Shown: positions 1 through 24,911 of the stretch, one piece after another
Position numbering within the stretch: position 1 is the first letter of the stretch
Layout: every line of letters begins with the position of its first letter
Position numbers and translations under genes: made by a program
Assembly (NCBI GenBank): GCA_049472355.1
Contig: JBLIRP010000047.1
Location: 1-30,453 of the forward strand
Source of the DNA: a bacterium
GTDB taxonomy: Bacteria; SZUA-182; DTGQ01; JAFGSM01
Direction: 5' to 3'
Length of the DNA stretch: 30,453 nucleotides
The notes under the pieces: model-generated
What the model was told of the DNA's origin: nothing
Seen by the model: only the letters and a program-made list of their open reading frames with translations
Databases searched by the model: none

Positions 1-2631
1 AAGGACCTCGGGAATCTGTGGGTCTATAGCGAGTCATCGTATACAAGCGCCCTGAGCCAGGGAAAGATTAAGACCTATAAGGATCCGTGGGGAAACAACT
101 ATACCCTGGCAGTGGGCACCAATCAGGTCTCCCTGACCACCAGGGGGCCCGACAAAAAATCCGGCACCCTGGATGATATCACCTACACCCTGCAGTATGA
201 GCAGGTCTACAAGCCAAACCCGGCTCCGGTGCGGCAGCAAGTCCCTATCGGCGGCGGATTGTGGGGAGGTCTATGGGGTATGCCTTTTGTGGGTGGCCAG
301 TTTTTCGCCCCTGCTCCCATGCTCGACATCAATCGCAACGCTCAGGGCCTAGCGTACGGCGCGTACGCCTCGGCTGCCTATGGCGGCACTGGCGGCACCG
401 TGGATGCCGGCGGCACCTATGTCGCGCAGACCAAGCAGGGTTTCATGAGTTCCCCCGAGCAGGGAGGGGAGACCCCCTCCGAGGGAACCGAGGAGACCGT
501 GGAGCCGCGAAGGGTGCGGAGGGATTTCCCCGAGACCCTCCTGTGGGAACCCTGCCTGATCACCGACCCGAACGGCACCGCCTTTCTCGATGCCAACATG
601 GCGGACTCCATCACCACCTGGCGGATGAGCACCATGGCCTCCGGCATGGACGGAAGTCTGGGAGGGAACACGGATGGGATCGTGGTGTTTCAGGAGTTCT
701 TCATCGACCTGGATCTGCCTGTTGCACTCACCCGCAACGACGAGATATCCCTTCCGGTCGCCATCTACAACTACCTGGAGGATTCCCAAAGCGTGCGCAT
801 CGTCATTGACACGAACAACCCATGGTTCGAACTCCTGGATACGAGCGAGAAGGAGGTTGACCTCGAGCCCGGCCAGGTGACATCAGTCCACTTCCGGATC
901 AGGGCACAGGAGGTCGGGTGGCATGAGCTCACCGTATTCGGGTACGGCACCAGCATGAGCGATGCAATCGCACGCACGATCGAGGTGCTCCCCGACGGTC
1001 TTGAATTCAATACCAGCATAAGCGACCGACTGGCAGGCAGCAGCATCGAGCGTACGGTCACCATCCCCGCGGACGCCATCGACAATGCCAGCAGGATCCT
1101 GGTCAAGGTCTATCCCGGCATCTTCAGCCAGGTGGTGGAGGGACTGGACAACCTGTTCAGGGTGCCTCACGGCTGTTTCACCCAGAGCACCACCATAACG
1201 TGGCCGAATGTGCTCGTTCTCGACTATATGCTCACCACCGACCAGATCACCCCTGAGATCGAGATGAAGGCCCGGGAGTACGTCAATCTCGGCTATCAGC
1301 GGCTTCTCACCTTCGAGTGCCCGAACGGCGGGTTCAGTTGGTACGGGAACGAACCGGCAAAGCCGGTGCTCACCGCCTACGGACTCATGGAGTTTACCGA
1401 TATGGCACGGGTGCAGTACGTGGACCCCGCCATGATCCAGCGCACCCAGGAGTGGCTCGTGGGCAAGCAGCAAAATGACGGGTCATGGCCGCCGGACCAA
1501 GTGAGGGAGCTCTTCAACGTGCTCAGCAACAACCTGCAGGCCACTGCATATGCGGTCTGGGCACTTATCCACTCCGGCTACTCCGCGCAGCACCAGAAGA
1601 TCATAAAGGGACTCGACTACGTGAGGGCGAATTGGGATGGGGTCCAGGACAACTATACCCTGGCCCTGTGTGCCCATGCGCTCCTGGAGGCCAATACGCA
1701 GGATTCCACAGGATTGCAAATCCTGGATATCCTGGAATCCACGAAGATCGTGGAGGGGGATACCATCCACTGGACCTCCACCCAGCCAAGCATGACCTAT
1801 TCAAGGGGCGGCTCCCTGACTCTGGAGACAACGGCCATGATCACCCTCGCCCTGATGAAGGCGGGCTGGAGATACCCGCAGAGCATCAACGGCGCGATCA
1901 ACTACATCATCCAGCACAGGGATGCCTTCGGCAACTGGGGACAGACCCAGGCCACGGTGCTCTGCCTCCGCGTGCTCATGACGGCCATGTCGGGTCAGAC
2001 CCAGGAGATGGAAGGGGATATCGTCATCGCCATCAACGGCCAGACACTGGACTATAACGACCTGCCCGTACTGAGGATCACCCCCGTGGACTCGAGCGTG
2101 GTGCGCCTCATCGACCTGAAACCTTACACTACGGAGGGTGACAACCAGGTAGGCATCAGCCTCGTCGGCGAGGGAAACCTCCTCTACCAGATCGTTGGCT
2201 CCTACTTCCTCCCCTGGCAGGGTGTCGGCATACCCACATCCCCGCAGCTCAAGATCGATCTGACCTACGACCGGCAGAACCTCACGGTGGATGACATCAT
2301 CCTGTGCACCGTGACCGCCACCAACACCGTGCCCGGGAGTGTGACCCAGATGGGCATGCTGGATCTCGGCATACCTCCGGGATTCAGGATCTTCTGGGAG
2401 GATTTCGAGGCGGCGATCGAGGAGGGAAAGATCTTCAAGTACGAATCCACGAACCGGCAGCTCACCCTGTACCTGCATCCCCTCCCCTACAACGAGCCCC
2501 TCTCCATCACCTACCGGCTCCAGGCGAAATACCCGCTGAAGGTCACCACACCGAGATCCAGGGTCTACGACTACTTCAACCCGGATATAGGGAATGAAAC
2601 CAGGCCCGTGATCCTCACGGTCACCGATTAA
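1..2631 (+). CDS. Alpha-2-macroglobulin family protein, 5'-truncated by the window edge
   Basis: The frame is open from base 1 (KDLGNLWVY...) into the 112..2631 ORF. Family motifs: RRDFPETLLW, ADSITTW, VFQEFFIDLDLPVALTRNDEI, thioester-site PHGCFTQ, GYQRLLTFE..GGFSWYG, terminal RVYDYFNP. Confidence 0.95.
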   Translation, partial: KDLGNLWVYSESSYTSALSQGKIKTYKDPWGNNYTLAVGTNQVSLTTRGPDKKSGTLDDITYTLQYEQVYKPNPAPVRQQVPIGGGLWGGLWGMPFVGGQFFAPAPMLDINRNAQGLAYGAYASAAYGGTGGTVDAGGTYVAQTKQGFMSSPEQGGETPSEGTEETVEPRRVRRDFPETLLWEPCLITDPNGTAFLDANMADSITTWRMSTMASGMDGSLGGNTDGIVVFQEFFIDLDLPVALTRNDEISLPVAIYNYLEDSQSVRIVIDTNNPWFELLDTSEKEVDLEPGQVTSVHFRIRAQEVGWHELTVFGYGTSMSDAIARTIEVLPDGLEFNTSISDRLAGSSIERTVTIPADAIDNASRILVKVYPGIFSQVVEGLDNLFRVPHGCFTQSTTITWPNVLVLDYMLTTDQITPEIEMKAREYVNLGYQRLLTFECPNGGFSWYGNEPAKPVLTAYGLMEFTDMARVQYVDPAMIQRTQEWLVGKQQNDGSWPPDQVRELFNVLSNNLQATAYAVWALIHSGYSAQHQKIIKGLDYVRANWDGVQDNYTLALCAHALLEANTQDSTGLQILDILESTKIVEGDTIHWTSTQPSMTYSRGGSLTLETTAMITLALMKAGWRYPQSINGAINYIIQHRDAFGNWGQTQATVLCLRVLMTAMSGQTQEMEGDIVIAINGQTLDYNDLPVLRITPVDSSVVRLIDLKPYTTEGDNQVGISLVGEGNLLYQIVGSYFLPWQGVGIPTSPQLKIDLTYDRQNLTVDDIILCTVTATNTVPGSVTQMGMLDLGIPPGFRIFWEDFEAAIEEGKIFKYESTNRQLTLYLHPLPYNEPLSITYRLQAKYPLKVTTPRSRVYDYFNPDIGNETRPVILTVTD

Positions 2632-2737: not shown

Positions 2738-4705
2738 TCATCTACGCGATGAATGGCCGAAGATGACGTACGGGGACCCGGAAAATCCCCCAAAGAGGAG
2801 GGAGGGTGTTCCGAACCCGCTCAACGGATACCATTGCTGAAAACCGGAACCGAAGGGTGAAAGGGACAGGAAACCCGGCGAGCCGTACGTACCCGGTTGA
2901 TAGAACTGCCCGGGAAAGGCATATCCACTGTATGGTTGACTAAGGACCCGCCCGAATTGTGAAGGGTAGTAAAAATTGCTTCCGATAAAGGGCTGCTGCA
3001 GACCCTGGCTGAATTGCCCTCCGGGAAGGCCGCCCCCTGTATAGAATAATTGCTGAAGGTATGGGTAGAATGTGCTGGATAGGAGGCCGGGAGCGAAGCC
3101 GTAGGGGCCGGACCCACCTAAGAGGCTATAATACGGATACAGGGAAAATCCCGGTACATAGGGGTTGATATAGAACCCGCCAAACGGCACAGCAGTGCCT
3201 GTCCCGGAGGAGGAGGGATTTCCCTGCTGGGTGACGCTGGTATAATCCCACAGATGGTCATCCAGTCGATCAAGGGCCAGCCTCAGATTTATCAGGCCGT
3301 ATCCCAGTTTCTTTTCGCCGAACAAGGGGTCATCGATGACCGTGCTGGTTTCCCTGAGCAATTGTCTGAAGGTATGGACCGTAAAATTGGAGTCCCTCGA
3401 TCGGATCAATGCAGCCAACCCGCTTACAAAGGGGACCGACAGGGAGGTCCCTGAAATCGCTTTGATGTCGGTGGAATCGGGCACCAACGATACAATGGAT
3501 TCACCGGGGGCCACGACATCGATCCAGGTCCCGTATTGGGCGTTGTCACGCCGTACGATCTTATTCTGCGCATTCACCCTGATGGCCGTGGTCCCGATCA
3601 CGTTGTTGTATGCCGCAGGATAGGCCTCATTCTCTTCGTCTTCGTTGTCAGCAGGCGCCACGAATATGCAATTATAGGCCTCACATGCCTCGTCGATGGC
3701 GTCCTGCATGATCTCCGATCTGCTCGGGGTGGACATGCTGAGATTGATCACGTCTGCCCCCTTGTCTACCGCATATTCGACAGCCTGCGCAATCGTCCCG
3801 GTGGTCGAGGTCCCCTGGGTGAAGGGTTTTATTTTCCCGGTTTGTTCCTCCAGATGCTCCAAATAGCTCGTCTTGATGGGCAGAATCTTACAGCGGGGGG
3901 CAATACCGGGCACCCCGATCGCATTGTGATTGGCGGCAATGATCCCGGTGATGGGGGTGCCGTGCGGTACCACGTCCCTGATGTCATGCTCGGGAGGCAG
4001 GACGCCGCCGTCCAGTTCCGCAGAGTGGACATAGATATCAAAGCAGTAGGTTTTTCCGCTGTAAAGGTAGCATTCCTCGGAGGGAGCAGCCGGATTGATG
4101 GAGGCATCGGGGGGATATCGCTTGAACAGGGCCGGGCTCACAAACCTGTTTGCGAGGTCGGGATGGTCTACATCCACCCCGGAATCGATAACGGCAACGA
4201 TCACCTCCTCCGAACCCTTTTCCATATCCCAGGCCTCGTATGCCCCGATCAATGCATAGTAGTCGTAGGTCATCTGACCTATTGCCGGGTCAGGGGGAAC
4301 GGCCCTCGATCGGGTTATAAACTCCTTTTCCGCGGTAACAATGGCATCATGCTTCTCTAATAACCACGCTGTTATTGCATCCAGGTCAAGGCTCCCTTCG
4401 GTTACAAACCTGACCTTGTACCACCGGGCCAGTTGGCTTTCCGGGTCCCCCCTCGCAAACAGCTTTACAATCACCACCTCTGCATCGTATCCTGCAGACT
4501 GTAGATCCTCTGTCAGATCCTGTGCCAGGGATTCGATGAAATCGCCGGCCTTCCCTTCCATAACCATGCCCCTGGATATCTTTATGTTGAGCTCATTCGG
4601 CACAAATACCTGGGCACGACCAAGCCCAAAGGAGAATAGGAGGATTGACAGAACGATTACCGGCAAAATCCTCGTCTTTCTTGAAAGACCAAAATAACTA
4701 ACCAT
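2738..4705 (-). CDS. Secreted S8 (subtilisin-like) serine peptidase with a C-terminal Gly/Tyr/Pro/Phe-rich tail
   Basis: Catalytic motifs VAVIDSGVD, HGTPITG, GTSLSVPFVSG; oxyanion Asn in APADN; also GADVINLS and LGYGLIN. Signal peptide ends at GRA-Q. Start placed at ATG 4705 (GAGGA RBS) rather than 4762. Confidence 0.93.
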   Translation of the reverse strand: MVSYFGLSRKTRILPVIVLSILLFSFGLGRAQVFVPNELNIKISRGMVMEGKAGDFIESLAQDLTEDLQSAGYDAEVVIVKLFARGDPESQLARWYKVRFVTEGSLDLDAITAWLLEKHDAIVTAEKEFITRSRAVPPDPAIGQMTYDYYALIGAYEAWDMEKGSEEVIVAVIDSGVDVDHPDLANRFVSPALFKRYPPDASINPAAPSEECYLYSGKTYCFDIYVHSAELDGGVLPPEHDIRDVVPHGTPITGIIAANHNAIGVPGIAPRCKILPIKTSYLEHLEEQTGKIKPFTQGTSTTGTIAQAVEYAVDKGADVINLSMSTPSRSEIMQDAIDEACEAYNCIFVAPADNEDEENEAYPAAYNNVIGTTAIRVNAQNKIVRRDNAQYGTWIDVVAPGESIVSLVPDSTDIKAISGTSLSVPFVSGLAALIRSRDSNFTVHTFRQLLRETSTVIDDPLFGEKKLGYGLINLRLALDRLDDHLWDYTSVTQQGNPSSSGTGTAVPFGGFYINPYVPGFSLYPYYSLLGGSGPYGFAPGLLSSTFYPYLQQLFYTGGGLPGGQFSQGLQQPFIGSNFYYPSQFGRVLSQPYSGYAFPGQFYQPGTYGSPGFLSLSPFGSGFQQWYPLSGFGTPSLLFGGFSGSPYVIFGHSSRR

Positions 4706-5175
4706 TGCCGTCCTCTCATCCGTTACAAATTGATAGTGGTCCCTGATTAACCCCTCATACATAATTATACCATGATCATCGTCTTTGTGAACTATTCACC
4801 CGGAATCGTGTCCTGAAAATACCATATATCTGCATGAAAAATTTATTGTAATGTCTTGTGCTCACCTTAATGGTATGAGAACTTTTATGAAAGTTTTCAA
4901 TTAATCATTTGTTTTTACGAACTTTCATCCCTTTTTGTTATCGATAGACCATGGATGTTCAGTGGCAAATTCATATTCCCTCAGCCATGTTCTCTATCCG
5001 GTCACCTATCAGATCATGCATTCTGATTGTTATTTATCAGCATTACGGTCGCGACGGTCATTCCTCAAAAGGCAATTTGCAATTGGAATGTGTTGACGGT
5101 AATATAGACTCGTTTGTGGAAAACGGCTCTCATCATGGCATGGATCAATATTCACAGATCAGGAAGGGGCGTCAC

Positions 5176-8578: not shown

Positions 8579-9076
8579 ATGAACCTTAAAAAGTCGTTGT
8601 GCGTACTCGTTGTAGTGTGTGCAGTATTGATGTTTATCGTTTCTGTTGCTCCTGTTCGATCCGAGGTTGATACGGAGGATGACGAGACCAGAACCGCTCA
8701 ATTCCTTCCATACGGGACGTACGGATTATACGGCTCACCCTATGCAAGCCCCTATGGCCTGCAGTATCCGCCGTATGCCGCCTATGGGGGACTATACCCT
8801 TATGGGGGGATTCTTCCCTATGGGGGCATTCTTCCCTATGCGTCCTATGGGTCCTATGGATTGGGAATGAGTCCCTTCGGGGCACAAAACATCTATTACC
8901 CTATACCCCTTCAAGGGACGGGCTATGTATTTCAGGCTCCGTATCTACAAATAGCACCGTACCTTGGGGCGACGACATTCTGGCAGAACCAGTTTCCGAA
9001 TGCGGATTGGAGCAATGTACTTGCGGCACAGTTTCTTGGTCTCATCGATCTTTCCGGAATGCCTCGTCTATTCTAA
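8579..9076 (+). CDS. Secreted Tyr/Gly/Pro-rich low-complexity protein of unknown function
   Basis: AAAGGGGG RBS; signal peptide MNLKKSLCVLVVV...; short acidic stretch EVDTEDDE; then PYG/YG-rich repeats (PYGGIL twice); own terminator. Confidence 0.85.
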   Translation: MNLKKSLCVLVVVCAVLMFIVSVAPVRSEVDTEDDETRTAQFLPYGTYGLYGSPYASPYGLQYPPYAAYGGLYPYGGILPYGGILPYASYGSYGLGMSPFGAQNIYYPIPLQGTGYVFQAPYLQIAPYLGATTFWQNQFPNADWSNVLAAQFLGLIDLSGMPRLF

Positions 9077-10102: not shown

Positions 10103-10388
10103 AAAATATTAACACATAGGCGCCTGTTCGGCCATAGGAGGCGCCGTGCTGTGTTTTTATCCCGGGTTGAATCATCTGGACGGATATAGGGCTGAGCAAA
10201 GGTTTATTCGCAAGGTCGAATAGAGCAGGTGAACGATTTGCGTGTGATCGAAAATCGAACCATACACCCTGTCCCTCTCTATTGCAAGGGAAACCCGGTT
10301 GCATATATGATTGAAGGGTGATGCAGGTATTGCAGCGATCCGCCGCAATCCGCATAAACGATGAATGGCCTCAGAGAAAGGAGAACCG

Positions 10389-13300
10389 ATGATACCGCAA
10401 AAGGGAGGAGGGTCCCGGAAGGGGCGCATCATCCGCATCATTGCCTATTCATTGCTCGCTGCCGGTGTTTGTCTTTTCCTGCTCGCCGCCGTCACCCCCA
10501 CCCTCCTTTCCCTCCGCCCTGTTCGCGGGGTAGTTCTTTCCATGGCCCAGGATGCCATCGAAGGCTCTCTGAATATTCAATCATGGTCCCTGGGGTGGTT
10601 TTCAGGCATCCAGGTGGAGGGCATCGAGTTTGATGACGGAAGGGGAACGACGGTGCGGGCGGCCCGAATGTCCATGTCCTCGGGACTCATTCGCCTATTG
10701 TGGAGCCCCAGGGACCTGGGCACCGTTCTCCTGATCGAACCCGATGCATCGGTACTGCTCCAAGGGCCCTCCGCCGAAAAGGAGGTCCACCGGAAGCCCC
10801 CCGGAGGTCTCCCTTTGGGCGGGCGTATAAAGGGGTTGTTCGTCATCCGTGACGGAAGGGTCGAGACAAGGACAGAGGGCGGGAAAAATCCCCTGCTGCT
10901 TGAAAAGATCAACGTGGACCTGGCGGTCAATGACCTGGACAAACCCATCACCCTCGATTTTACTGCAATGCAGGGGGGAACCAGCGGGCAGGTCCATGGA
11001 AATGCCGTGGCCGGGATATTCGCAACGGATGGATTTGACCCCAACAGGGCGCAGGGCAAGATCCGCATCGACCTGTCCGCATTCGACCTGGGGCCGGCAA
11101 GCGAGGTGGCCGGGTTCTTTGCACCCCTGCCGCAGATAAACGGAACAGTGGATTGCACCGTGTCCGCCGCAATCGAGGGGCTCGAACAGGTCTCCCTGGA
11201 CGGCCGCATACACCTTGCATCCCTGAACATGACCGGGGGCCCCCTGGGGGATGACACCCCCTCCTTCGATTCCATGCAGATCAATTTCAACGTGCTCAGG
11301 GATGGCCGAAACGTCCTGGTGAAGGGCTTCAACCTCGACGCCCCCTTTGCACATATCACGGCCGCAGGCGATCTCCGCGATGAAGGAGCGGCATATCCTG
11401 CAGGCACGGTTTCCGCCAAGGGGAACCTGGATATCGCGCGCATCCTTTCGGAGATCCCCCGGACCCTCAAGATAAAGAAGGGGATGCGCATGTCGAGCGG
11501 TGACCTCGACTTCACCACCGAGGCTTCCTCCTCCGGAGAAAAAATGGACCTTTCCGCGGATGCGGAGGTCTCGAACATACAAGGGATACAGGGGCAAAAG
11601 ACCTTCACCATCGAGGCACCCATCACCCTCTCCGCAAAGGCGGCAATGACGAGACAGGGGCCAATGCTTGAACGTATGACCCTTGCCTCGTCCTTTGCGA
11701 ATATGAGCGGCCAGGGGGACCCAAACGATGCGCAGGCGAGCATTGCGATCGACCTGGATACCCTCACGAGGGAGCTGGGAGCATTCGTCGACCTTGGGGC
11801 ATTTCGCGCATCAGGCTCCACAAACGCACACCTGCGCATGCAGGGTACGGGCAGGTACAACAAGACGTGCAGCGTCACCATGCTCTGCAAGAACCTCTCC
11901 CTCAAGGGAATCACCCCGAAACCGATTCGGCAGGATTCGGTTCAGGCAGACCTCTCGTTCCGGCTCGCCTTTACCGAGAGTGGTATGTTCATGGAGGAGG
12001 TTCATGACCTCAGCCTCAGGGTTGCTTCATCCGCTCTTTCGGCGGACATATTTGGAGACCGCCTTGCGATCACGGAAATGGGCCCATTGCTTCATAACGC
12101 CCGGGCACGAATGACGCTTGATATAGGGGAGGCGGCACACATAGCCGGGAACATCGGTCTCATGAAATCCGACGTCGATGCAAGGGGGACACTGCAATTT
12201 GAGTGCGTCGCCGGCATTTCAGCAAAGGATAGTATCAATGTGTCATCGGTTGCTGCGGACATAACAAACCTTCTCCTTGTTTCCGGCGCCACGGGAATAT
12301 CGGAGCCCTCCGTCACACTGAGGACCAAGGCCACGATCAACCCCTCCACCCGTGAGGCCACAATCCGGGACCTGACTGTGCGCCTTTCTGCAGGAACGCT
12401 CACCGTCCCGGAGGCGGAGATCCGGGATTGGAAGGCGCTGCCTTCCGGTTTAACGGGTGAGGCGTTGGCAGAGTTCAGCCTTGGCCCCCTCGTGTCCAGG
12501 TTCTTCTCACCCTCACCCCTACCAAAGGGGTCCTCCCTCTCGGGAAATATGACCTGCACCATCAAGGCCGCCCCGGAGGGGCCGCTGCAGCGCGTGGAGA
12601 TCGCGTCGGAGTTCTCGAACATACGATTCATCACCGCTGACAAACGGGTGATCCAGGAGGAATCGGCACAGGTAGGCCTGATTGCCGGGCTCAACGAAGC
12701 AGCGGACAACCTGATACTCGATGCCATCCGGATACAGACCCGCCCCCTGCAGATAACCGGCTCCGGGAAACTGACCGGCCTGGACACCACGAGGGACCTA
12801 TCAATGAGCGGGCAACTGGGGTGCGATTTTGCGCGCATGGGGGAGATCCTGGCCGCGCTATCCGATATACGCCTGGACATCGAGGGAACAAGCAACCGAA
12901 AATTTACCGCGGAAACCTCCCTTGCCGGAAAGACCTGGACCGATATCCTCAAAATGACGCGCGCCTCAGCCGGCCTCCGGATCGAACGGCTCAAGGCGTT
13001 CGGCATCGAGGCCCGCGATATGCAGGCACAGCTTTACGCCGAGGATTCCACGGCCCGGGTGGACCTCTCCACGAAGGTCAACGAAGGGGATCTTGCCGTT
13101 GTCCCTATTCTGGACCTCAGGGGTGAGAAACCCGTCCTGTTCGTAGCGAAGGATTCGAAGGTCCTTCAGAACGTGAGCCTTACGGATGAGATGGCCACCG
13201 AACTCCTTGCCCTGGTCCACCCCGTGTTTCGCGGGTGCGCGATCATGGGGGGGCGGTTGGGCCTGCTGCTCAAACAGTGCAGGGTCCCCCTGGACAAGAA

Positions 13301-13769
13301 CATGAAGCGGGACATGATGATCATCGGTGATATGGAGCTGAAGGGGGTGGAACTGGTGCCCTCCGGACTCCTGGGATCGCTCCTTGAAATCATCAGGCTG
13401 GAGCCGTCACCTGCGCGCATCCCGGATCAGACGATTTCCTTCATCTGCACAGACGGGCGTATACGGCCGTCACCGTTGACCATCCGATCAAGCGGCTATG
13501 AAATCATCCTCTCCGGCTCGGTAACCCTTGATGGGATCGTCGACTACGTGGCGGAGGTGCCGGTGACCGAAAAAATGGTGAGCCAGGATGTCTACAAATA
13601 CGTCAAGGATTCTCGGCTGAAGGTATCGATCGAGGGCCCGGCGGCAAGGCCCCGAATATCGAAAAAATCCCTGGATGAAACCCTGAGCGGTCTGGTGAAG
13701 GATGCGGCACGGAATCTGATCAAGGAAAAGGGCACGGAGATGCTCAAACAGTTGTTCAAGAGCCGGTAG
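10389..13769 (+). CDS. AsmA-like (TamB/AsmA superfamily) envelope protein
   Basis: Single N-terminal TM helix followed by over 1000 aa of amphipathic beta-strand pattern; C-terminal ILSGSVTLDGIVDY...IEGPAARPRI and a terminal amphipathic helix. AAGGAG RBS before ATG 10389 (alternative start 10365). Confidence 0.8.
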   Translation: MIPQKGGGSRKGRIIRIIAYSLLAAGVCLFLLAAVTPTLLSLRPVRGVVLSMAQDAIEGSLNIQSWSLGWFSGIQVEGIEFDDGRGTTVRAARMSMSSGLIRLLWSPRDLGTVLLIEPDASVLLQGPSAEKEVHRKPPGGLPLGGRIKGLFVIRDGRVETRTEGGKNPLLLEKINVDLAVNDLDKPITLDFTAMQGGTSGQVHGNAVAGIFATDGFDPNRAQGKIRIDLSAFDLGPASEVAGFFAPLPQINGTVDCTVSAAIEGLEQVSLDGRIHLASLNMTGGPLGDDTPSFDSMQINFNVLRDGRNVLVKGFNLDAPFAHITAAGDLRDEGAAYPAGTVSAKGNLDIARILSEIPRTLKIKKGMRMSSGDLDFTTEASSSGEKMDLSADAEVSNIQGIQGQKTFTIEAPITLSAKAAMTRQGPMLERMTLASSFANMSGQGDPNDAQASIAIDLDTLTRELGAFVDLGAFRASGSTNAHLRMQGTGRYNKTCSVTMLCKNLSLKGITPKPIRQDSVQADLSFRLAFTESGMFMEEVHDLSLRVASSALSADIFGDRLAITEMGPLLHNARARMTLDIGEAAHIAGNIGLMKSDVDARGTLQFECVAGISAKDSINVSSVAADITNLLLVSGATGISEPSVTLRTKATINPSTREATIRDLTVRLSAGTLTVPEAEIRDWKALPSGLTGEALAEFSLGPLVSRFFSPSPLPKGSSLSGNMTCTIKAAPEGPLQRVEIASEFSNIRFITADKRVIQEESAQVGLIAGLNEAADNLILDAIRIQTRPLQITGSGKLTGLDTTRDLSMSGQLGCDFARMGEILAALSDIRLDIEGTSNRKFTAETSLAGKTWTDILKMTRASAGLRIERLKAFGIEARDMQAQLYAEDSTARVDLSTKVNEGDLAVVPILDLRGEKPVLFVAKDSKVLQNVSLTDEMATELLALVHPVFRGCAIMGGRLGLLLKQCRVPLDKNMKRDMMIIGDMELKGVELVPSGLLGSLLEIIRLEPSPARIPDQTISFICTDGRIRPSPLTIRSSGYEIILSGSVTLDGIVDYVAEVPVTEKMVSQDVYKYVKDSRLKVSIEGPAARPRISKKSLDETLSGLVKDAARNLIKEKGTEMLKQLFKSR

Positions 13770-16202: not shown

Positions 16203-17438
16203 CTATAGCGGCATGGACCGCAAGGCCGCGATGCGATCGAGGACCGGCGGATGGGTATAGCGCAGCACCACGTTCAATGGATGAGGGGTGAGATTTCCGA
16301 GGTTGGAAACCGCAAGGTTTTTCAGGGCCGAAACGATTCCCTCTATGGAACCGGTGGTTTGTGCAGCGAACGTATCCGCCTCCAACTCATGTTTGCGGGA
16401 AATATGGTTCATCAGAACTGAAATTACAAACTCCACCGGAAGATAGAGAAATGCAAAAAAGACGAACCCGGCATACACGGATGTCCGCTGCACCCCGAAT
16501 GCCTGGAAGAGCCTCAGGTTATCCATAAAAATGGAGAGCAGGTACAAAAATACGCCGGTGTGGAGGATGGCCCACACCATCCCCTTGACCACGTGCCGTT
16601 TCTTGTAGTGGCCCACCTCGTGCGCGATAACGGCAACGATCTCCTCGGGGGAATGCCGGTTGAGCAGGGTGTCGAAGAGCGCAATCCTCTTTTTATAGAG
16701 CCCGCTGAAATAGGCGTTGGAGTGCGCCGACCGCCGGGATCCGTCCATCACGCTGATCTCCTTGAGAGGAAAACGGACCCGTGCGGCGTACCGTTCAATG
16801 TCCCCCTTGAGCCCGCCCTCTTCAAGCGGGATAAAATCGTTGAACAGGGGTGCGATGACCATTGTATACAGGGGTTGGGCAATAAGTATGAAAATGGACA
16901 CAAAGGCCCATACATAAAGCCATGCAAGGGAGCCGGCCCGTTCAAAGATGAACTGCATTCCTCCCAGGATGATTGAACCCAGGATGCATACGAGGAGGTA
17001 CATCTTGGCCTTGTCGATAAAGAAGGTCCTGAGGGTCATGGTGTTGAATCCGAACCGTTCTTCGATCACGAAATGATTGTAGAGAGAGAACGGGATAGAG
17101 AAGACCTCGTAGATGAGAAAGAGGATCCCGAAGAAGATGAGACCTGCGATCGTAGTCGGGACGTCAAGCCCCCGGACGAACCGGTCCACGTAACTGAATC
17201 CGCCCGCCAGGATGAAGGTCAGCACAAAAACGAGGCTGAATGCCGATGAAATGCAGTCGAATTGCGCCTTGCTTCTGGTATATTGCTGGGACCTGGCATA
17301 GCGCTCGGGCTCATACATGCCCTTGAATTCATCGGGCAGGGTCATATCAAGGGATCTGATGCACAGAAAATCCCCGATGCACTCAACGACAAACCCGGCA
17401 ACAAGGGCAGCCAGAATGATTATGAGATATATGTTCAT
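16203..17438 (-). CDS. M48 family Ste24-like membrane zinc endopeptidase
   Basis: HEVGH zinc motif, DGSRRSAHSNAYFSG, IEERFGFN, SRKHELEADTFA, YTHPPVLDRI; multiple TM helices. Confidence 0.96.
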   Translation of the reverse strand: MNIYLIIILAALVAGFVVECIGDFLCIRSLDMTLPDEFKGMYEPERYARSQQYTRSKAQFDCISSAFSLVFVLTFILAGGFSYVDRFVRGLDVPTTIAGLIFFGILFLIYEVFSIPFSLYNHFVIEERFGFNTMTLRTFFIDKAKMYLLVCILGSIILGGMQFIFERAGSLAWLYVWAFVSIFILIAQPLYTMVIAPLFNDFIPLEEGGLKGDIERYAARVRFPLKEISVMDGSRRSAHSNAYFSGLYKKRIALFDTLLNRHSPEEIVAVIAHEVGHYKKRHVVKGMVWAILHTGVFLYLLSIFMDNLRLFQAFGVQRTSVYAGFVFFAFLYLPVEFVISVLMNHISRKHELEADTFAAQTTGSIEGIVSALKNLAVSNLGNLTPHPLNVVLRYTHPPVLDRIAALRSMPL

Positions 17439-18033: not shown

Positions 18034-20625
18034 ATGAAAACGGCAGCCATACGCACGCGTATCGTCATCCTTGGTCTCATCATCGTTTCGTTTCTTTTTC
18101 AGGCCAATGCAGCGCCTGCCGGCACCCATGGAATCGGGCATTCCTGCTCCAGCACCATGGAATGCTCGCCCGGGGCTTACTGCAAAAAGGACCCGGGAGA
18201 CTGCCAGGGCGAAGGTGAATGCGAGCGACGGCCCTTTTACTGTCCCCAGGTATGGGCACCGGTATGCGGATGCGACGGCAAGACCTATCCCAACGAATGT
18301 GAAGCGTCCCGCAAGGGCATCAATGTGCAGTCACAGGGTGCATGCCAGCCCGGACAGACCCAGTGCACGGACAACGGCGACTGTGCATTGAATGACTATT
18401 GCCGGAAACAGATCGGGGTATGCGAAGCAGGCGCCGGGACCTGCGCGCCCAGGCCGGAGGTCTGTGCCCAGATATGGGACCCGGTATGCGGATGCGACGG
18501 CAAGACCTATCCCAACGAATGCACGGCTGCGACCTACGGGATCAATGTGCGATCACAAGGTGCATGCCAGCCGGGGCAGACCCAGTGTACGAACAACAGC
18601 GGTTGCCAGCCGAATGAATACTGCCGGAAGCAAACCGGGGTATGCGAGGCAGGCGCCGGGACCTGCGCGCCCAGGCCGGAGGTCTGTGCCCAGGTATGGG
18701 ACCCGGTATGCGGATGCGATGGGCAGACCTATCCCAATGCCTGCGAGGCGGCAACCCGGGGCATCAATCTCGCCACCGAATCGGCCTGCACCCCGGGGCA
18801 GATACCCTGTACCACCAACAGCGCCTGTCCGCCCGACTCCTATTGTGACAAGCCGATCGGCCAGTGTAATGCGGCCGGGACCTGCGCGCCCAGGCCGGAG
18901 GTCTGTGCACAGATATGGGACCCGGTGTGCGGATGCGACGGCACAACCTATCCCAATGAGTGCACGGCTGCCTCAAACGGCGTCAGCGTCTATCAGGAAG
19001 GCGAATGCGAGCCGGGAATCACCCCATGTACGGGCAACAGCCAATGCCCATCCGGATCGTTCTGCAAAAAGGCGGCCGGGGATTGCACGGGAAGCGGGGA
19101 ATGCGCCCCCGCACCCCAGACCTGCCCGGAAATCTACGCACCGGTATGCGGGTGCGACGGCAAAACCTACTCGAGCGAATGCGTGGCAGCCGGAAACGGC
19201 ATCAACGTGGACTATGCAGGGGAATGCACCCCCGGAGGCATAGAATGCACCGCAGATGCCGAATGTGGAACGGACGAATACTGTCAAAAGGCCACCGGGG
19301 ATTGTAACGGGAACGGGGTGTGCGCTGTGGTTCCGGAGGGATGCCCCGATGTATGGGCCCCGGTGTGCGGGTGCGACGGCAAGACCTATCCCAATGACTG
19401 CGCCGCCGCCCTGGAGGGGATTAATGTCAATTACACCGGCGAATGCCAGGGAACCGGTCCCCAGTGTTCGGACAGCAGCATTTGCCCTGCAGGGACCACC
19501 TGCCAGAAGAGCCCTGGACAGTGCTCTGGGATGGGGGTCTGCGCACCACCGCCGACGTCCTGCCCTGACGTATGGGCTCCGGTGTGCAGTTGCGACGGCA
19601 AGACCTATCCCAGCGGATGTGTTGCTACCTCCCAGGGGAAAAACATCGCCTATACCGGGGTGTGTCAGGCAAGCGACGTCACCTGTTCCGATAACAGTGC
19701 ATGCCCTGCAGGTGAGTATTGCCGGAAGGACTCCGGGGAGTGTAGTACTGCACAGGGGGCATGCGCCCCCCGTCCCGAGACGTGCCCGGACATATGGGAA
19801 CCGGTCTGCGGATGCGACGGTCAGACCTATCCCAACTCGTGCGAGGCGGCAGCCCAGGGGGTCAATGTGGACTATACCGGCCAATGCCCCGGAGGAAGCC
19901 TTTTTTGCTCCACCAACAACGATTGCTCACCCTTTGCCTATTGTCAGAAGGACCCGGGGAAGTGCACCGGCCTGGGCACGTGTGCGCCGCGTCCCGAGTT
20001 CTGCATCCAGGTCTATGACCCCGTGTGCGGGTGCGACGGAAAGACCTATTCCAATGAATGCGTGGCAGCTTCAAGCGGTGTGAGCGTCGACTATGAAGGC
20101 GCCTGCAAATCCACGCCCTCCCCCAGCCCCCAGCCCTCCCCCTTCCCGTTTCCCGGTTCCCTCTTCGGCGGGTACCCCATCGGGGGATTCCCCGGCGGGT
20201 TCCCTGGCGGAGGGTACTATGGCGGGGGATATCCCTATGGCGGCTCCTACGGGGGAGGATTCCCCTACGGCGGCATCATCGGGGGCCTTATCGGCGGATT
20301 CCCGTACGGCGGCATCGGCGGGGGCCTCATCGGCGGATTCCCGTACGGGGGCTATTCATTCGGAGGATTTGCAGGAAGCAGGTATCCGTACGGTGGTCTT
20401 TCCGGCACCACCTACCCCTATGGAGGGTTTTCCGGGACCACATTCCCGTCCGGGGGATTTTCGGGGACCACCTACCCCTACGGAGGATTTTCCGGAACCA
20501 CTTACCCCTACGGCGGGTTCACGGGTGGCTCCTTCCCCTTGGGCGGCTACTTCAGTGGGGGCTTCTTCGGATTCAACAGGGGATTCACCTCCTATCCGTT
20601 CAGCTACCCCTACTCGCAGCAATAA
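18034..20625 (+). CDS. Secreted multi-Kazal (nine units) Cys-rich protein with Gly/Tyr/Pro/Phe-rich C-terminal tail
   Basis: AAGGAGG RBS; signal peptide; nine C-x6-VC[G/S]CDG-x-TY-x3-C-x-A Kazal cores, each preceded by a five-Cys module; PSPSPQP linker and GGFPYGG/GGFSGTTYPY tail. Confidence 0.93.
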   Translation: MKTAAIRTRIVILGLIIVSFLFQANAAPAGTHGIGHSCSSTMECSPGAYCKKDPGDCQGEGECERRPFYCPQVWAPVCGCDGKTYPNECEASRKGINVQSQGACQPGQTQCTDNGDCALNDYCRKQIGVCEAGAGTCAPRPEVCAQIWDPVCGCDGKTYPNECTAATYGINVRSQGACQPGQTQCTNNSGCQPNEYCRKQTGVCEAGAGTCAPRPEVCAQVWDPVCGCDGQTYPNACEAATRGINLATESACTPGQIPCTTNSACPPDSYCDKPIGQCNAAGTCAPRPEVCAQIWDPVCGCDGTTYPNECTAASNGVSVYQEGECEPGITPCTGNSQCPSGSFCKKAAGDCTGSGECAPAPQTCPEIYAPVCGCDGKTYSSECVAAGNGINVDYAGECTPGGIECTADAECGTDEYCQKATGDCNGNGVCAVVPEGCPDVWAPVCGCDGKTYPNDCAAALEGINVNYTGECQGTGPQCSDSSICPAGTTCQKSPGQCSGMGVCAPPPTSCPDVWAPVCSCDGKTYPSGCVATSQGKNIAYTGVCQASDVTCSDNSACPAGEYCRKDSGECSTAQGACAPRPETCPDIWEPVCGCDGQTYPNSCEAAAQGVNVDYTGQCPGGSLFCSTNNDCSPFAYCQKDPGKCTGLGTCAPRPEFCIQVYDPVCGCDGKTYSNECVAASSGVSVDYEGACKSTPSPSPQPSPFPFPGSLFGGYPIGGFPGGFPGGGYYGGGYPYGGSYGGGFPYGGIIGGLIGGFPYGGIGGGLIGGFPYGGYSFGGFAGSRYPYGGLSGTTYPYGGFSGTTFPSGGFSGTTYPYGGFSGTTYPYGGFTGGSFPLGGYFSGGFFGFNRGFTSYPFSYPYSQQ
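18139..20106 (+). repeat. Intragenic tandem repeat array, nine units of about 220 bp
   Basis: GCCGGGACCTGCGCGCCCAGGCCGGAGGTCTGTGC recurs exactly in units 2, 3 and 4 (spacing 222 and 219 nt); TGCGA[C/T]GG recurs in all units. Confidence 0.9.
20380..20530 (+). repeat. 30-bp coding tandem repeat (GGFSGTTYPY-like)
   Basis: YPYGGLSGTT-YPYGGFSGTT-FPSGGFSGTT-YPYGGFSGTT-YPYGGFTGGS. Confidence 0.85.
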
Positions 20626-20757: not shown

Positions 20758-20786
20758 GGTATGAATTTTTGAAAGGAGACCGCTAC

Positions 20787-21071
20787 ATGGCACAGATGAT
20801 CCGGAAGCAGGTTTATATTGAACAAAGACAGGATGCAATACTAAAAAGGCTCGCCCATGTAAGAGGCGCGACCGAAGCCGAAATCATTCGAAAGGCAATC
20901 CAAAGAGAGGCCAATGCGGTTGTTGAGGGAGAAGGAAGTCCTGATCCCCAAGCATGGGGAGCTGTGCGCGACTTCATACTCACACTCATTGCGAAAGGAA
21001 GCGCAGCCGGGGGAAGAAAATGGAAGCGGCAGGATATCTATGAGGAAAGATTGAAACGAGATGGCCGTTAA
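20787..21071 (+). CDS. CopG/ribbon-helix-helix antitoxin (VapB-like)
   Basis: RKQVYI...ILKRLA...TEAEIIRKAI RHH pattern, C-terminal RKWKRQDIYEER; AAAGGAG RBS; overlaps the PIN gene start. Confidence 0.85.
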   Translation: MAQMIRKQVYIEQRQDAILKRLAHVRGATEAEIIRKAIQREANAVVEGEGSPDPQAWGAVRDFILTLIAKGSAAGGRKWKRQDIYEERLKRDGR

Positions 21072-21494
21072 ATATCTTATTGACACCAATGTGCTCGTCC
21101 ACGCCATGACCGATCGGAACCAGAAAAGCAGCGAAAGGCATTTGAAGTCATGGAGCGGCTGTATACCCTTGGTTCTGCAGCACTGACAACACAAATTCTC
21201 GCTGAGTTCTTTACCATTGTCACTCGCAAATTGAGTAATCCTTTAACGATAGAGGAATCCACGCGTCAGGTTGAGCTGTTGGCCCGTGTGTGGCCGGTTT
21301 TCGATGTGACAGCCTTCACCGTCATTGAGGCAATTCGAGGAGTCCAATCCCACCAGATGCCCTACTGGGACTCCCAAATATGGGCATCTGCGCCATTAAA
21401 TCAGATACCGATTATCTTGTCCGAAGATTTTAGTGCCGGAAGGGTGATCGAGGGAGTTCGCTTCATAAATCCCTTTATCCAGGAAATTGAATAA
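21061..21494 (+). pseudogene. vapC: PIN-domain toxin (VapC-like) with a 1-nt frameshift near 21105
   Basis: ATG 21061 gives MAVKYLIDTNVLVHA; homology continues in the -1 frame as DRSEPEKQRKA...TQILAEFF...YWDSQIWA...ILSEDF...GVRFINPF. Confidence 0.85.
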
Positions 21495-22277: not shown

Positions 22278-22841
22278 CTACAGAAGCGGCAGTCCCCACA
22301 CCTCAGCAGGGGTCAGGAAGCTCGAGAACGAGTAATTGTAAATGGACGGCGGATAGAGAATGGCGTACGTGGTATTGGCTGCGTTGAAAAAGAGCCCGAA
22401 GTCATCCAATTCCGTGGGAGGCAACAGTTCGAAACCTGCGGGCAGGGTAGTAGGCACGGGCGCACCGGTTACAGGATCACTGAGATACGAGGGAGGCCAT
22501 GGATTGAACCCATAGTACGGTGCAAAATAGGTAAGGCCCCCGCCCAGGACAGAGGGAATATTATACAGGAGCCACGGGAAGCTCTGCGCCGGGTCCCATA
22601 CCAGTGCAGGTTGTACCGGGAGTATTGTGTTATTGGAGATCTGTGTCAGCAAGGGCGTGGCCAGCCCCGTACCCGGATCCACCGGAGAGAGCGCAGGCGA
22701 CCACAAAGGCCACAGGAGATTGTATGGTGGCAGCGCTTGCCAATATTGAGCCCGAGCCATTGATGCATTGACGAAGATAAAGGCGGCAAGCAGTACCAGA
22801 CCCGTAATTGCCAGCCACACAAACCTTTTTTCCTTCATCAT
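22278..22841 (-). CDS. Secreted Pro/Leu/aromatic-rich protein of unknown function
   Basis: GAGGAAAGGG RBS; signal peptide ending ARA-Q; mature sequence QYWQALPPYNLLWPLWSPALSP..., few charged residues. Confidence 0.88.
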   Translation of the reverse strand: MMKEKRFVWLAITGLVLLAAFIFVNASMARAQYWQALPPYNLLWPLWSPALSPVDPGTGLATPLLTQISNNTILPVQPALVWDPAQSFPWLLYNIPSVLGGGLTYFAPYYGFNPWPPSYLSDPVTGAPVPTTLPAGFELLPPTELDDFGLFFNAANTTYAILYPPSIYNYSFSSFLTPAEVWGLPLL

Positions 22842-22957
22842 ACCCTTTCCTCCTCATAGCACGAAGGACAGTCCAAAAAAACACTGGACGAATGAATGAT
22901 AAAGACACGCTACATGTATGCACCCCCTTCCCTTCTCTGGTCTCTTGTATGAAACAG

Positions 22958-22974
22958 AGCATGAATGGTGCCAA
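22958..22974 (-). promoter_or_regulatory. Candidate sigma54 promoter for the 22841 gene
   Basis: Minus strand TTGGCAC-CATTC-ATGCT, exact GG-N10-GC spacing. Confidence 0.7.
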
Positions 22975-23101
22975 TGGTATTTGATTGATCCTGGGCCTCC
23001 GTGAACATTGGAAGGGTACGTCCACCCTGTGATTTCCAGACAGTGAATATATGGTGCATGGTTACGAAGGGGGGATGGTGCGGATAGAAATTACGAATGA
23101 T

Positions 23102-24214
23102 TCATAATTTTTTCCCCGTTCCCAGCCATCCCTTTTCAAGGGGATCTGGGGGCACCCGTCCCTGCCGCTCTAGCCGGTAGCAGCAAAATGCGTTCTCTGC
23201 ATCGGAGCCGCTGAGGGCGAGGGGAAGATTCGGGCATCCACCCCTGCATTGGAGGTTATGGGGGCAGGTGCGGCAGAATCCCTGGAGCATTGCCGGATGA
23301 AACAGGCGGGTACGCCAAAAGCGCCCGTGGTCCTGCCAGATCGCATGCAGGGACTCCATTCTGAGATCCCCCACCATCCTTGAATCGGGAAGGGAAAGAC
23401 AGGGTTTTATCTGACCGGTGCTGCATATGCCCAGGGTGGCGATTCCTGCCGCGCACCCGGACCATACGGGCAGTTCGGTATACCCGGTAAGCCGCCCCGA
23501 AAAATACCCGAAGCAGTGACTCCCGGCAACCGGAAGGTCATCCACCCCATACGCAGCCCGGCTTTTCGAAATGAACTCGGCAACCTGGTAGACCTGCTCG
23601 GGGCTCAGGTTCCATTCATCCGACCATCGCCTGCCGTGCGCAGCCACTGCCTGCAGTTGCCACGTGATATTCCGTCCGGCCAGGAGATCCCGGAGCTCCA
23701 CAAGCTCGCCGAGATTCAGAACGGAGACGGAGGTAATGGCCCCTGTTTCAAAACCTGCATCCCTCAGCAACCACAGGGCGTTAAGCGCACGCTGGTGGGA
23801 GCCCGCTCGTCCCCGAATCCGATCGTGAATCTTCGCCGTTGCCCCGTCCAGGCTGACCCCGATCCGGCTCAACCGGCTGAGGTCCTGCAATCGCCGTATC
23901 ACCGGCGGTTCAATGAGCCATCCATTGGTGATGATCACCAGGTCCATACCAAGATCGCAGATAGCCGAGGCGACGTCGAACCATCCAGGGGCGAGAAGGG
24001 GTTCGCCGCCCAGGATACATACCTCCCGGCAGCCCAGGGAGGCCAACTGCTCCATGACCCCGATCCACTCGGCGGTGTCGAGCTCGCCCGGACGTGGATC
24101 TCCTGCGGTGGAACCGCAATGAAGGCAACGCAGGTTGCATCGCAGGGTAAGCTCTACGTTCACGAACCAAAGGGGAGGGATAGTATTCTGCATTATACCC
24201 GTTTTCTCACACAT
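23102..24214 (-). CDS. Radical SAM enzyme with SPASM domain, probable peptide/protein maturase
   Basis: CNLRCLHC SAM-cluster motif, GGEPLL, ITNG, VSLDG..HDRIRG; SPASM WSGCAAG..GQIKPC..CRTC..CRGGC..NAFC. Confidence 0.93.
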   Translation of the reverse strand: MCEKTGIMQNTIPPLWFVNVELTLRCNLRCLHCGSTAGDPRPGELDTAEWIGVMEQLASLGCREVCILGGEPLLAPGWFDVASAICDLGMDLVIITNGWLIEPPVIRRLQDLSRLSRIGVSLDGATAKIHDRIRGRAGSHQRALNALWLLRDAGFETGAITSVSVLNLGELVELRDLLAGRNITWQLQAVAAHGRRWSDEWNLSPEQVYQVAEFISKSRAAYGVDDLPVAGSHCFGYFSGRLTGYTELPVWSGCAAGIATLGICSTGQIKPCLSLPDSRMVGDLRMESLHAIWQDHGRFWRTRLFHPAMLQGFCRTCPHNLQCRGGCPNLPLALSGSDAENAFCCYRLERQGRVPPDPLEKGWLGTGKKL

Positions 24215-24292
24215 TCACCGGCTGCACCCTGTGAAAAACCTGCCGGCAGTCTCCTGTGATACGGGATTGCGCCTGTACAAGGGCATGCACAC

Positions 24293-24760
24293 CTATGCCT
24301 TCAGATGGGACCGTTTTACCAGTCCGTAGAGGGTGCCGGCCGGATACGGACTTGACGATCCCGATCCCGGGTAGATCCCCGGGTAGTTCCCTTGATACCC
24401 CCACGGGGAGCTCCACGGGGAGGACCATAGATTTCCCCAGGAACCCCACGGTGACCCCCATGCAAAGGAGGGATACGACAGGAATGACGAGGCACCCGAC
24501 CATGGGGAATAGAACGAACCGAAGGGAGACCATGGCGTATAGGACCACGGCGTGTAGTATGATGAATAGGAAGACCAGGGAGAGAAGAAGCCCCCATACG
24601 AGTATGGGAATGAAAAGAACTGGGAAGGCGCCCTGGTCTGGTATTGAATGCTTGAGCCGATACCCTGCTCGAGGGCATCCAACCCCGGAAATGCATTCAA
24701 AGGAAACAGAGATTGTGTGCTTTTTCTTCGTTCCAATCTTTTAAAATAGATGGAAGGCAT
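24293..24760 (-). CDS. Ser/Pro/Trp/Tyr/Gly-rich repeat peptide, candidate precursor for the adjacent radical SAM enzyme
   Basis: AAGGA RBS; charged N-terminal ~40 aa then a charge-free region with ten Trp, seven in [S/T]PW; no hydrophobic signal peptide; 78 nt upstream of the rSAM gene on the same strand. Confidence 0.8.
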   Translation of the reverse strand: MPSIYFKRLERRKSTQSLFPLNAFPGLDALEQGIGSSIQYQTRAPSQFFSFPYSYGGFFSPWSSYSSYYTPWSYTPWSPFGSFYSPWSGASSFLSYPSFAWGSPWGSWGNLWSSPWSSPWGYQGNYPGIYPGSGSSSPYPAGTLYGLVKRSHLKA

Positions 24761-24893
24761 AATCCTTTTCCTTTATTGAAGAATGATGTCAATGGGCCGG
24801 ACAGACGAAATCGTGGTACGGTCGATCTCCCACCCCCTTTAAAGGCATCCATTACCCTTTCCTGTATCGGTTCATTGAATACCTCTGCATGAG

Positions 24894-24911
24894 TTGCACA
24901 AAATATGCCAA
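24894..24911 (-). promoter_or_regulatory. Candidate sigma54 promoter for the peptide/rSAM operon
   Basis: Minus strand TTGGCAT-ATTTT-GTGCAA, exact GG-N10-GC spacing. Confidence 0.65.

Follow-up and report, generated by a model that had tools for sequence, protein, structure and literature searches.

A two-gene unit on contig C91

The DNA analysed here (the window) is the 30,453-nucleotide (nt) contig C91 of the bacterial genome G000 (3.49 Mb, 87.5% complete), and near relatives of this DNA occur in metagenomes from marine sediment and mangrove. Our subject is a unit of two genes on its reverse strand: P0001, a precursor of 155 amino acids (aa) in which the open reading frame (ORF) and alignments reveal a leader, an aromatic low-complexity insert and a C-terminal core (24293..24760 (-)), and P0002 or "rSAM-B", a radical S-adenosylmethionine (rSAM)/SPASM enzyme of 370 aa recognised by Pfam/NCBIfam models and motifs (23102..24214 (-)). 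An earlier note on this DNA had taken the pair for a candidate system for ribosomally made peptides with modifications added after translation (RiPPs), in which Trp-containing [S/T]PW repeats of the precursor are the modification sites. Its gene descriptions were accurate: the ORF at 24293-24760 (-) has ten Trp and seven [ST]PW, the 370-aa enzyme matches Radical_SAM (E 5e-26) and SPASM (22.2 bits, cut-off 21.5), and a Pfam scan and the neighbouring genes show no adjacent RiPP recognition element (RRE), protease or transporter gene. The 78-nt gap that it gave between the genes holds up to the first ATG of P0002, but close homologues of the enzyme begin near Met9 (24190), so that the true gap is probably 102 nt.

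The P0001-P0002 junction is spanned by independent contigs from other studies, namely of the DNA runs X7 (covering 23724-24892) and X9 (22549-24786) and the RNA-library runs X18, X19 and X20, so that the two-gene arrangement is not an assembly artefact. Since RNA libraries can hold DNA, the X18-X20 contigs show the arrangement rather than transcription. The same two-gene form, with its frames open, is found again in relatives whose nucleotide identity is about 92-93%. RNA-library cover is missing on the flanks of the unit, to which we attach no weight.

The conserved core of the precursor

P0001 ends in PYPAGTLYGLVKRSHL, a core that the earlier note overlooked and that conforms to the conserved family ending PYxPGT[LRYD]YGLx[KR]RxN[LI]. 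Based on alignments and predicted docking, this core or tag comprises SPYPAGTLYGLVKRSHL (residues 137-153; 24302..24352 (-)) and contains a putative splice site, L144-Y145-G146 (24323-24331 (-)). A sequence search with P0001 returned three other homologues (50-89%), and orthologues are present in genomes G001 and G007, that is in 3/20 genomes of the class when its own is included. The core is constant while the insert comes and goes (alignments A4 and A5); columns Y139, G142, T143, Y145, G146, L147 and R150 are invariant in A4, and the core is intact in P0123 and P0125.

Metagenome loci were taken as the best 80 of 199 matches to an alignment of the enzyme, and many of them are short. Twelve of the 80 hold a P0002 orthologue (nine placed by FastTree; L040, which duplicates L039; and the partial L038 and L047, placed by identity). 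In six of these 12 "B loci" the precursor is on the contig, as peptides of 56-58 aa or as one three-cassette protein, all of which combine an LExR leader with no more than one Trp and end in PYxPGT[LRYD]YGLx[KR]RxN[LI]. Among the other six, five start within the upstream rSAM gene or shortly before it, and no precursor was found at the remaining B locus, L049. The broader pattern [YW]xxG[TSN]xY[GAS] occurs in 23/80 metagenome loci vs 3 for reversed ORFs.

Searching 1.84 billion representatives with a profile yielded 62 matches: 28 short or multi-cassette precursors with a leader (among them P0167, moved by eye from the "leaderless" group), 6 long ones that carry an aromatic insert like that of P0001, 19 leaderless proteins, 4 consisting of the core only and 5 without it. 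The full 16-column core is present in 53 of the 62. At the X-Tyr-Gly site of the cores, Tyr is found in 61/63 and Gly in 60/63 with X variable, a pattern that is partly selected by the profile; by another count Gly follows the second Tyr in 57/65 cores as well as in these 60/63, Ala or Ser stands there in 7/65, and the preceding residue may be R, L, D, K, Y, I or M.

By sequence comparison, the P0001 leader carries the motif I-Y-F-x-x-L-E-x-R-x-S-T-Q (residues 4-16; 24713..24751 (-)), which resembles the [IV]xELExR leader of its short relatives and is common to 15 precursors of this order in the fetched genome regions, including a paralogue on contig C83 of the same genome. All 15 contain Tyr-Gly, with Trp counts from 0 to 18. 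P0001 matched no Pfam or NCBIfam family and has no Nif11 or NHLP leader and no DUF1843; in the ESM Atlas, no usable match was found for P0001, and a short precursor gave only unnamed matches below 0.9.

The Trp/Ser/Pro tract

The ten Trp of P0001 (positions 62, 72, 77, 87, 101, 105, 108, 112, 116 and 120) lie in a Trp/Ser/Pro/Gly low-complexity insert delimited by alignments and strain variation (residues 60-121; 24398..24583 (-)), and its seven [ST]PW were reached by 0/20,000 shuffles (mean 0.29). Of the 53 relatives that carry a full core, 41 contain one Trp or none, and only one has three or more [ST]PW; in a check independent of the core motif, no ORF with at least three [ST]PW was found in the metagenome loci (0/80). 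The G001 orthologue has 8 Trp and 0 [ST]PW, the G007 orthologue has many SPW, and SPW-rich inserts are also seen in a few order-level relatives (L133, P0200). Repeat copy number differs even between strains, with a 12-nt in-frame insertion in X3, X7, X9 and X18. Moreover, 40 ORFs of the genome contain an uncharged low-complexity stretch of 60 residues rich in Tyr, Gly, Ser, Pro and Phe, many of them with signal-like N-termini; examples in the window include an eight-Kazal-domain protein and a subtilase (18034-20625 (+), 2738-4762 (-), 8579-9076 (+)).

Because the Trp tract varies among relatives and strains and resembles these 40 ORFs, we regard it as a habit of the lineage, placed between leader and core. 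We reject the repeats as the core in view of the conservation of the tag, the relatives without repeats and the docking model described below, and the role that the earlier note gave them as modification sites found no support: they are missing in most relatives, strain-variable, low-complexity-like and outside the confident interface. The tract might instead act as a disordered spacer or adhesive, as the aromatic tracts of many proteins of this genome might, and such tracts are possibly a lineage-specific envelope or matrix anchor. Eye-catching repeats in precursors of this lineage should thus be read with caution as background low-complexity sequence.

A splicease-like enzyme outside the named families

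P0002 has the CxxxCxxC motif at C26/C30/C33, GGE at 69-71 and SPASM cysteines at 254, 272, 314, 317, 323, 327 and 344; PF04055 and PF13186 score above cut-off, and the cysteine motifs are invariant in 19 homologues. Judged from its sequence, the enzyme looks intact and under selection; third codon positions take 23/34 of the differences listed for a junction-spanning relative (p 5e-5). Its predicted fold is a radical SAM barrel (pLDDT, the predicted local distance difference test score, 83), for which Foldseek ranked SkfB/SuiB/PqqE best at 18-23% identity; the solved relatives among the listed matches are generic rSAM/SPASM proteins, none of them named a splicease (9 sequence hits).

The best NCBIfam matches are TIGR03913 with 180 bits (cut-off 591.75) and TIGR04103, the PlpX-type family that we take to be identical to IPR026482, with 178.3 bits (cut-off 725), followed by AhbD with 132.5 bits. 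DynA is absent among the 25 best of the 60 families that match P0002. Phylogenetic trees were built with FastTree from 136 of 165 phmmer hits (CxxxCxxC and 280 aa required, duplicates removed) and, in a quick run, with IQ-TREE from 48 sequences. The references were a Nostoc plasmid protein, L126 (853 bits, above the TIGR04103 cut-off), which has a small downstream gene and a Nif11 precursor ending in ALYGLPP, together with two DUF1843-associated enzymes. P0002 falls into clade B (99), the sister (84) of clade A (99), and both lie inside a 32-row clade (97 by the Shimodaira-Hasegawa-like approximate likelihood ratio test, SH-aLRT) that also holds archaeal enzymes encoded beside YKAGTxYGT repeats. 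The annotated TIGR04103/TIGR03913 references form a clade of their own (100), on the same side of the tree as the P0002 clade and apart from Ahb/NirJ-like enzymes (FastTree 0.897; SH-aLRT 97), including those of the same genome. By affinity, P0002 is splicease-like and stands outside any named family.

A scan of the genome collection with P0002 alone gave 3 loci. The pairing of a precursor with an rSAM/SPASM maturase that the earlier note had seen recurs, as orthologous loci carry precursor-like ORFs, and it is the core-bearing ORFs that travel with the clade.

Predicted docking of the core

The model of the complex, built with alignments that we supplied, comprised the full-length precursor (155 aa), the enzyme, SAM and three 4Fe-4S clusters. 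It scored 0.95 in three runs, with 0.00 for the best of three controls; the mark for this score is reached by 116/157 solved pairs and 2/215 mismatched pairs, a calibration outside of which the ligands lay. At least 47% of contacts are common to the runs, and the pLDDT of the partner is at least 38. The confident interface consists only of precursor residues 137-150 and 152-155, facing the barrel interior including residues 68-69 at GGE, and contains no Trp. Asn19, one of the clade B-specific substitutions in the barrel strands, touches Gly146 of the precursor. The model supports binding of residues 137-155 inside the P0002 barrel.

Cassette context

The usual cassette of this family consists of one or more precursors, a methyltransferase-TPR protein, rSAM-A and rSAM-B (L037, L042, and G007 across its contigs C245 and C57), with variants that add an RRE-M50 protease (L039) or miss the methyltransferase (L039, L045, L050). 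Our unit retains rSAM-B alone, the second rSAM of the usual cassette, and neither a match to the methyltransferase-TPR part nor an rSAM-A orthologue was found in its own genome (87.5% complete). In G001 (97% complete), B has no match and the methyltransferase-TPR part is fused to A. Within the same genus as the window's genome there is thus a split, with rSAM-B alone in one genome and rSAM-A alone in another, so that what each paralogue does can be studied separately. Single-rSAM loci with YxxGTxY[AG] (L090, L092, L113) indicate that two enzymes are no requirement of the two-Tyr motif. As a separate matter, we looked for an rSAM-A remnant in the 78-102-nt spacer, which gave no alignment above shuffles with any of five upstream regions (5/5). 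Neither a small Y-like gene nor heme genes were seen in the window unit.

The C83 locus of the same genome (L001:5417-10080) is conserved in the order and encodes a membrane HExxH protease (49.7 bits with a daptide-type model, below cut-off), an SPFH/band-7-rSAM fusion and a second splicease-like rSAM that is closer to TIGR04103 (290 bits). In loci of this type, the P0001 leader recurs on one to three precursors whose aromatic tract is surrounded by several [LY]YG[VI] sites; the C83 precursor itself has four XYG sites.

Several other loci deserve mention in their own right. Archaeal-type loci (L034 of Thermoplasmatales, L041, L046, L059, L060, L066-L070, L073-L075, L081) code for between one and four paralogous rSAM enzymes and in many cases for a methyltransferase; their precursors have from one to six Tyr-Gly sites, most of them within YKAGTxYGT[IV]S repeats. 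At L032:5398-11498 (G004), a splicease-like rSAM gene stands beside genes that by eye resemble three ATP-grasp ligases and an ABC transporter, possibly forming a mixed spliceotide/graspetide cluster. The rSAM genes of L052-L055 and L079 adjoin those of small hydrophobic proteins in which a predicted membrane segment is followed by a YG site.

Proposed tyramine excision and competing explanations

With a probability of roughly 0.55, we propose that rSAM-B excises tyramine at Leu144-Tyr145-Gly146 and leaves a ketoamide. Splicing is favoured because the cores follow an XYG pattern, in which X is free and Tyr-Gly is fixed, and because the nearest families of P0002 are splicease-type. The tyrosine tail, docked in the barrel as predicted, would lose C8H9NO (135.07 Da), and the resulting ketoamide would be a protease-blocking group. 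One rSAM may be enough for this, given that single-rSAM YxxGTxY cassettes exist and that the same-genus genome keeps only the sister paralogue. As the C83 precursor has the same leader as P0001, processing may come in trans from the C83 membrane HExxH protease, which would handle the leader. The earlier note had listed tyramine excision (-135 Da) as a side option; this is the option that fits, but at a Leu-Tyr-Gly site that the note did not name.

A number of observations weigh against splicing. The two invariant Tyr lie six residues apart, which is more than the XYG rule explains, and P0002 scores far below the TIGR04103 and TIGR03913 cut-offs and belongs to a clade separate from the annotated members of these families, in trees that contained no experimentally proven splicease. 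Clade B is without the Trp of the WE[LI]T motif that other splicease-like groups keep. rSAM-A is present in all 12 metagenome B loci and in both other genomes with a B orthologue, which leaves room for B to catalyse a second step or another one. The lowest-error contacts in the complex model are those of Leu147, Val148 and Gly146, with Tyr145 in the interface but outside the 25 best pairs; docking may be biased by the partner alignment, which has its greatest depth at the core, and the model may remember rSAM-peptide complexes that have been solved (5v1t, 9gmc). Given that a second Tyr is invariant, that the clade is separate, that barrel residues are altered (Asn19 with its modelled contact to Gly146, and the lost WE Trp) and that rSAM-A and the methyltransferase-TPR protein are the usual company, a different Tyr-directed change on YxxGTxY is a possibility to be reckoned with, if an unlikely one: a Tyr139/Tyr145 crosslink, for instance, or a step before or after those of rSAM-A and the methyltransferase. 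The Ala or Ser after the second Tyr in 7/65 cores would also suit such chemistry, whereas the otherwise fixed Gly at this position with a free preceding residue is the XYG pattern, and the nearest families of P0002 remain the splicease-type ones.

It is quite unlikely, in our view, that the unit is an orphaned half-cassette in which rSAM-B needs an rSAM-A or a methyltransferase lost in this lineage and makes little or no product. The lack of matches to both partners in the own genome and the presence of rSAM-A at every other B locus seen would agree with such decay, but the two-gene form recurs in relatives with open frames, differences are in excess at third codon positions, the core is intact in P0123 and P0125, and contigs from RNA libraries of two studies, though no proof of transcription, span both genes. 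Our confidence is lower still in the [S/T]PW repeats as multiple sites of Trp crosslinking (known from rSAM RiPPs such as triceptides) or epimerisation that would yield a poly-crosslinked peptide. The repeats are real and beyond chance, and SPW-rich inserts recur in L133 and P0200; they are nevertheless missing from the precursors of all six B loci (6/12) with a precursor on the contig and, as [ST]PW, from the G001 orthologue, the confident interface is devoid of Trp, and the Trp-crosslinking WgkB model scores 86.6 bits, far below its cut-off of 650. Hardly credible, finally, is a cofactor rSAM of the AhbD/NirJ/PqqE type next to an unrelated upstream ORF: the AhbD and NirJ models do match P0002 at 132.5 and 117.5 bits without approaching their cut-offs of 500 and 515, core-bearing ORFs accompany the clade, Ahb/NirJ-like enzymes are set apart in the tree, and precursor and enzyme form a predicted complex.

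The unit offers a sharp and cheap test for a widespread, chemically unstudied splicease-like clade, with the substrate shrunk to a 16-residue tag. Splicing, if true, would mean that proteins could be given beta-amino acids by way of a new splice tag, and another reaction at Tyr would be new radical chemistry.

A portable tag and a phage contig

The 19 leaderless profile matches (P0174, P0176-P0178, P0180, P0181, P0183, P0185, P0186, P0188, P0190, P0191, P0193-P0199) are small proteins that are mutually dissimilar outside the tag PYPPGTRYGLxKRxNL, which lies within the last 23 residues in 17 of them. The tag is portable across unrelated small proteins. PHROGs and Pfam gave no convincing family for the 19 (3/19 had weak PHROG hits). 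A 62-aa ORF ending in YTPGTRYGLLYRKNLK (L139:3991-4179) is encoded on an IMG/VR contig, a fragment of a large phage with a terminase-like gene that is 11% complete and shows no rSAM gene. Among 2.9 million viral contigs, the strict tag pattern had no match, a relaxed pattern and the tag alignment found only L139, and neither P0195 nor the rSAM-B alignment had any relatives; the tag was also without a match in 50,697 GenBank phages. We call the leaderless proteins "phage-like" because of L139 and by impression. PADLOC returned only generic viperin-rSAM hits, and a defence role is unsupported.

We regard it as doubtful, though worth stating, that the sequence is a leader-independent modification tag for the whole splicease-like clade that phages append to their proteins, either to gain a ketoamide warhead that inhibits proteases or to decoy the enzyme. 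Just as tentative is the complementary idea that bacteria put the tag on short peptides or, here in P0001, on sticky aromatic polymers. Phage-encoded partner enzymes or non-viral origins of the tagged proteins are an alternative. A tag on unrelated, partly phage-borne proteins hints at viral use of host peptide-maturing enzymes; if this proved true, it would catch a RiPP maturase in phage-host conflict and supply a splice tag of natural origin, 16 residues long, for a one-component enzyme.

Promoter and other features of the window

The sigma54-like promoter described in the earlier note exists as a motif match about 135 nt upstream of the precursor gene (putative -24/-12 site, 24896..24911 (-), with GG-N10-GC at 24896-24910 (-)), but no such site was found upstream of the G001 and G007 precursors. 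The loose pattern has 12 sites in the window vs 8.05 +/- 3.13 by chance, and a stricter score is matched by 0.9% of 3,000 random 400-nt windows of the genome. Searched with what we take to be the RpoN-box and GAFTGA motifs, the genome has one RpoN-box ORF and 15 GAFTGA ORFs. Such sites are not general ahead of the low-complexity genes of the genome (3/23), and as the X18 contig extends to 24949, beyond the site, it does not support a start there. Going by the motif, a promoter at this position is plausible.

At 22278-22841 (-) lies the gene of a protein of 187 aa whose N-terminus looks signal-like and which falls into no Pfam family; it has its own GG-N10-GC site at 22959-22973. A homologue of this protein is also encoded after the G001 cassette (L021:7520-8056), and several paralogous contigs are recruited by pieces of the window's gene. 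Proteases and their inhibitors are plentiful in the window, which has an alpha-2-macroglobulin (1-2631 (+)) and an M48 peptidase (16203-17438 (-)) besides the Kazal protein and the subtilase. A small gene pair at 20769-21494 (+) resembles, by eye, an antitoxin with a PIN-type toxin, with no Pfam, NCBIfam or PADLOC hit, and an ORF of 1134 aa at 10365-13769 (+) has no Pfam or NCBIfam family.

Comparison with known systems

Known Trp-crosslinking rSAM RiPPs include darobactin, streptide and WGK (PMC8326336). Our system shares with them the rSAM/SPASM fold and, at first sight, a Trp-rich precursor, but P0002 is outside those families, Trp is not conserved and the model docks the Tyr core. TIGR03913 enzymes are GDL-motif rSAMs with DUF1843 precursors that we presume to be spliceases; this is the equal-best family for P0002, and the precursors of DUF1843 systems carry LYG, PYG, xYA or MYM. 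They differ in the bit score (180 vs 592), in the N-terminal position of their Tyr motif and in forming a separate clade.

Type I spliceotides are made by PlpX/PlpY/PlpA and PcpXYA with enzymes of IPR026482 (PMC11002830). TIGR04103 is likewise among the two best-scoring families for P0002, which nevertheless reaches 178 vs 725 bits at about 31% identity and has neither a Nif11 leader nor a Y protein beside it. A splicease survey (Scott et al. 2022), as cited in PMC10849128 and PMC10533398, tested 27 systems and predicted 939. Our literature search found no paper on this motif or cassette, though that survey of 2022 or its supplement may list the clade.

The target of spliceases is XYG, LYG occurs as a natural site, and a Y protein is dispensable in binary systems (PMC11414181, PMC11626197, PMC10533398); such Y-protein-free systems are RhaX/RhaA, RcsX/RcsA and RasX/RasA of Rheinheimera (PMC11414181, PMC11626197). 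Like these, and with the enzymes compared by description only, our unit has two components (an rSAM/SPASM enzyme and a precursor), no separate RRE, a conserved XYG (LYG being the RasA site) and a separable leader and core. Unlike them, it has a different leader, a 90-residue aromatic insert and the core PYxxGTxYGLx[KR]RxNL with a second invariant Tyr, and its family usually encodes two rSAM paralogues and a methyltransferase-TPR protein. With the archaeal tyrosine-tail cassettes of rSAM and methyltransferase-TPR proteins (L034 and others), it has in common the 32-row clade, the YxxGTxYG motif and an LGCG-type methyltransferase; it differs from them as a bacterial branch with its own A/B duplication, an LExR leader and a GLx[KR]RxNL tail, from which the unit in our window has lost A and the methyltransferase.

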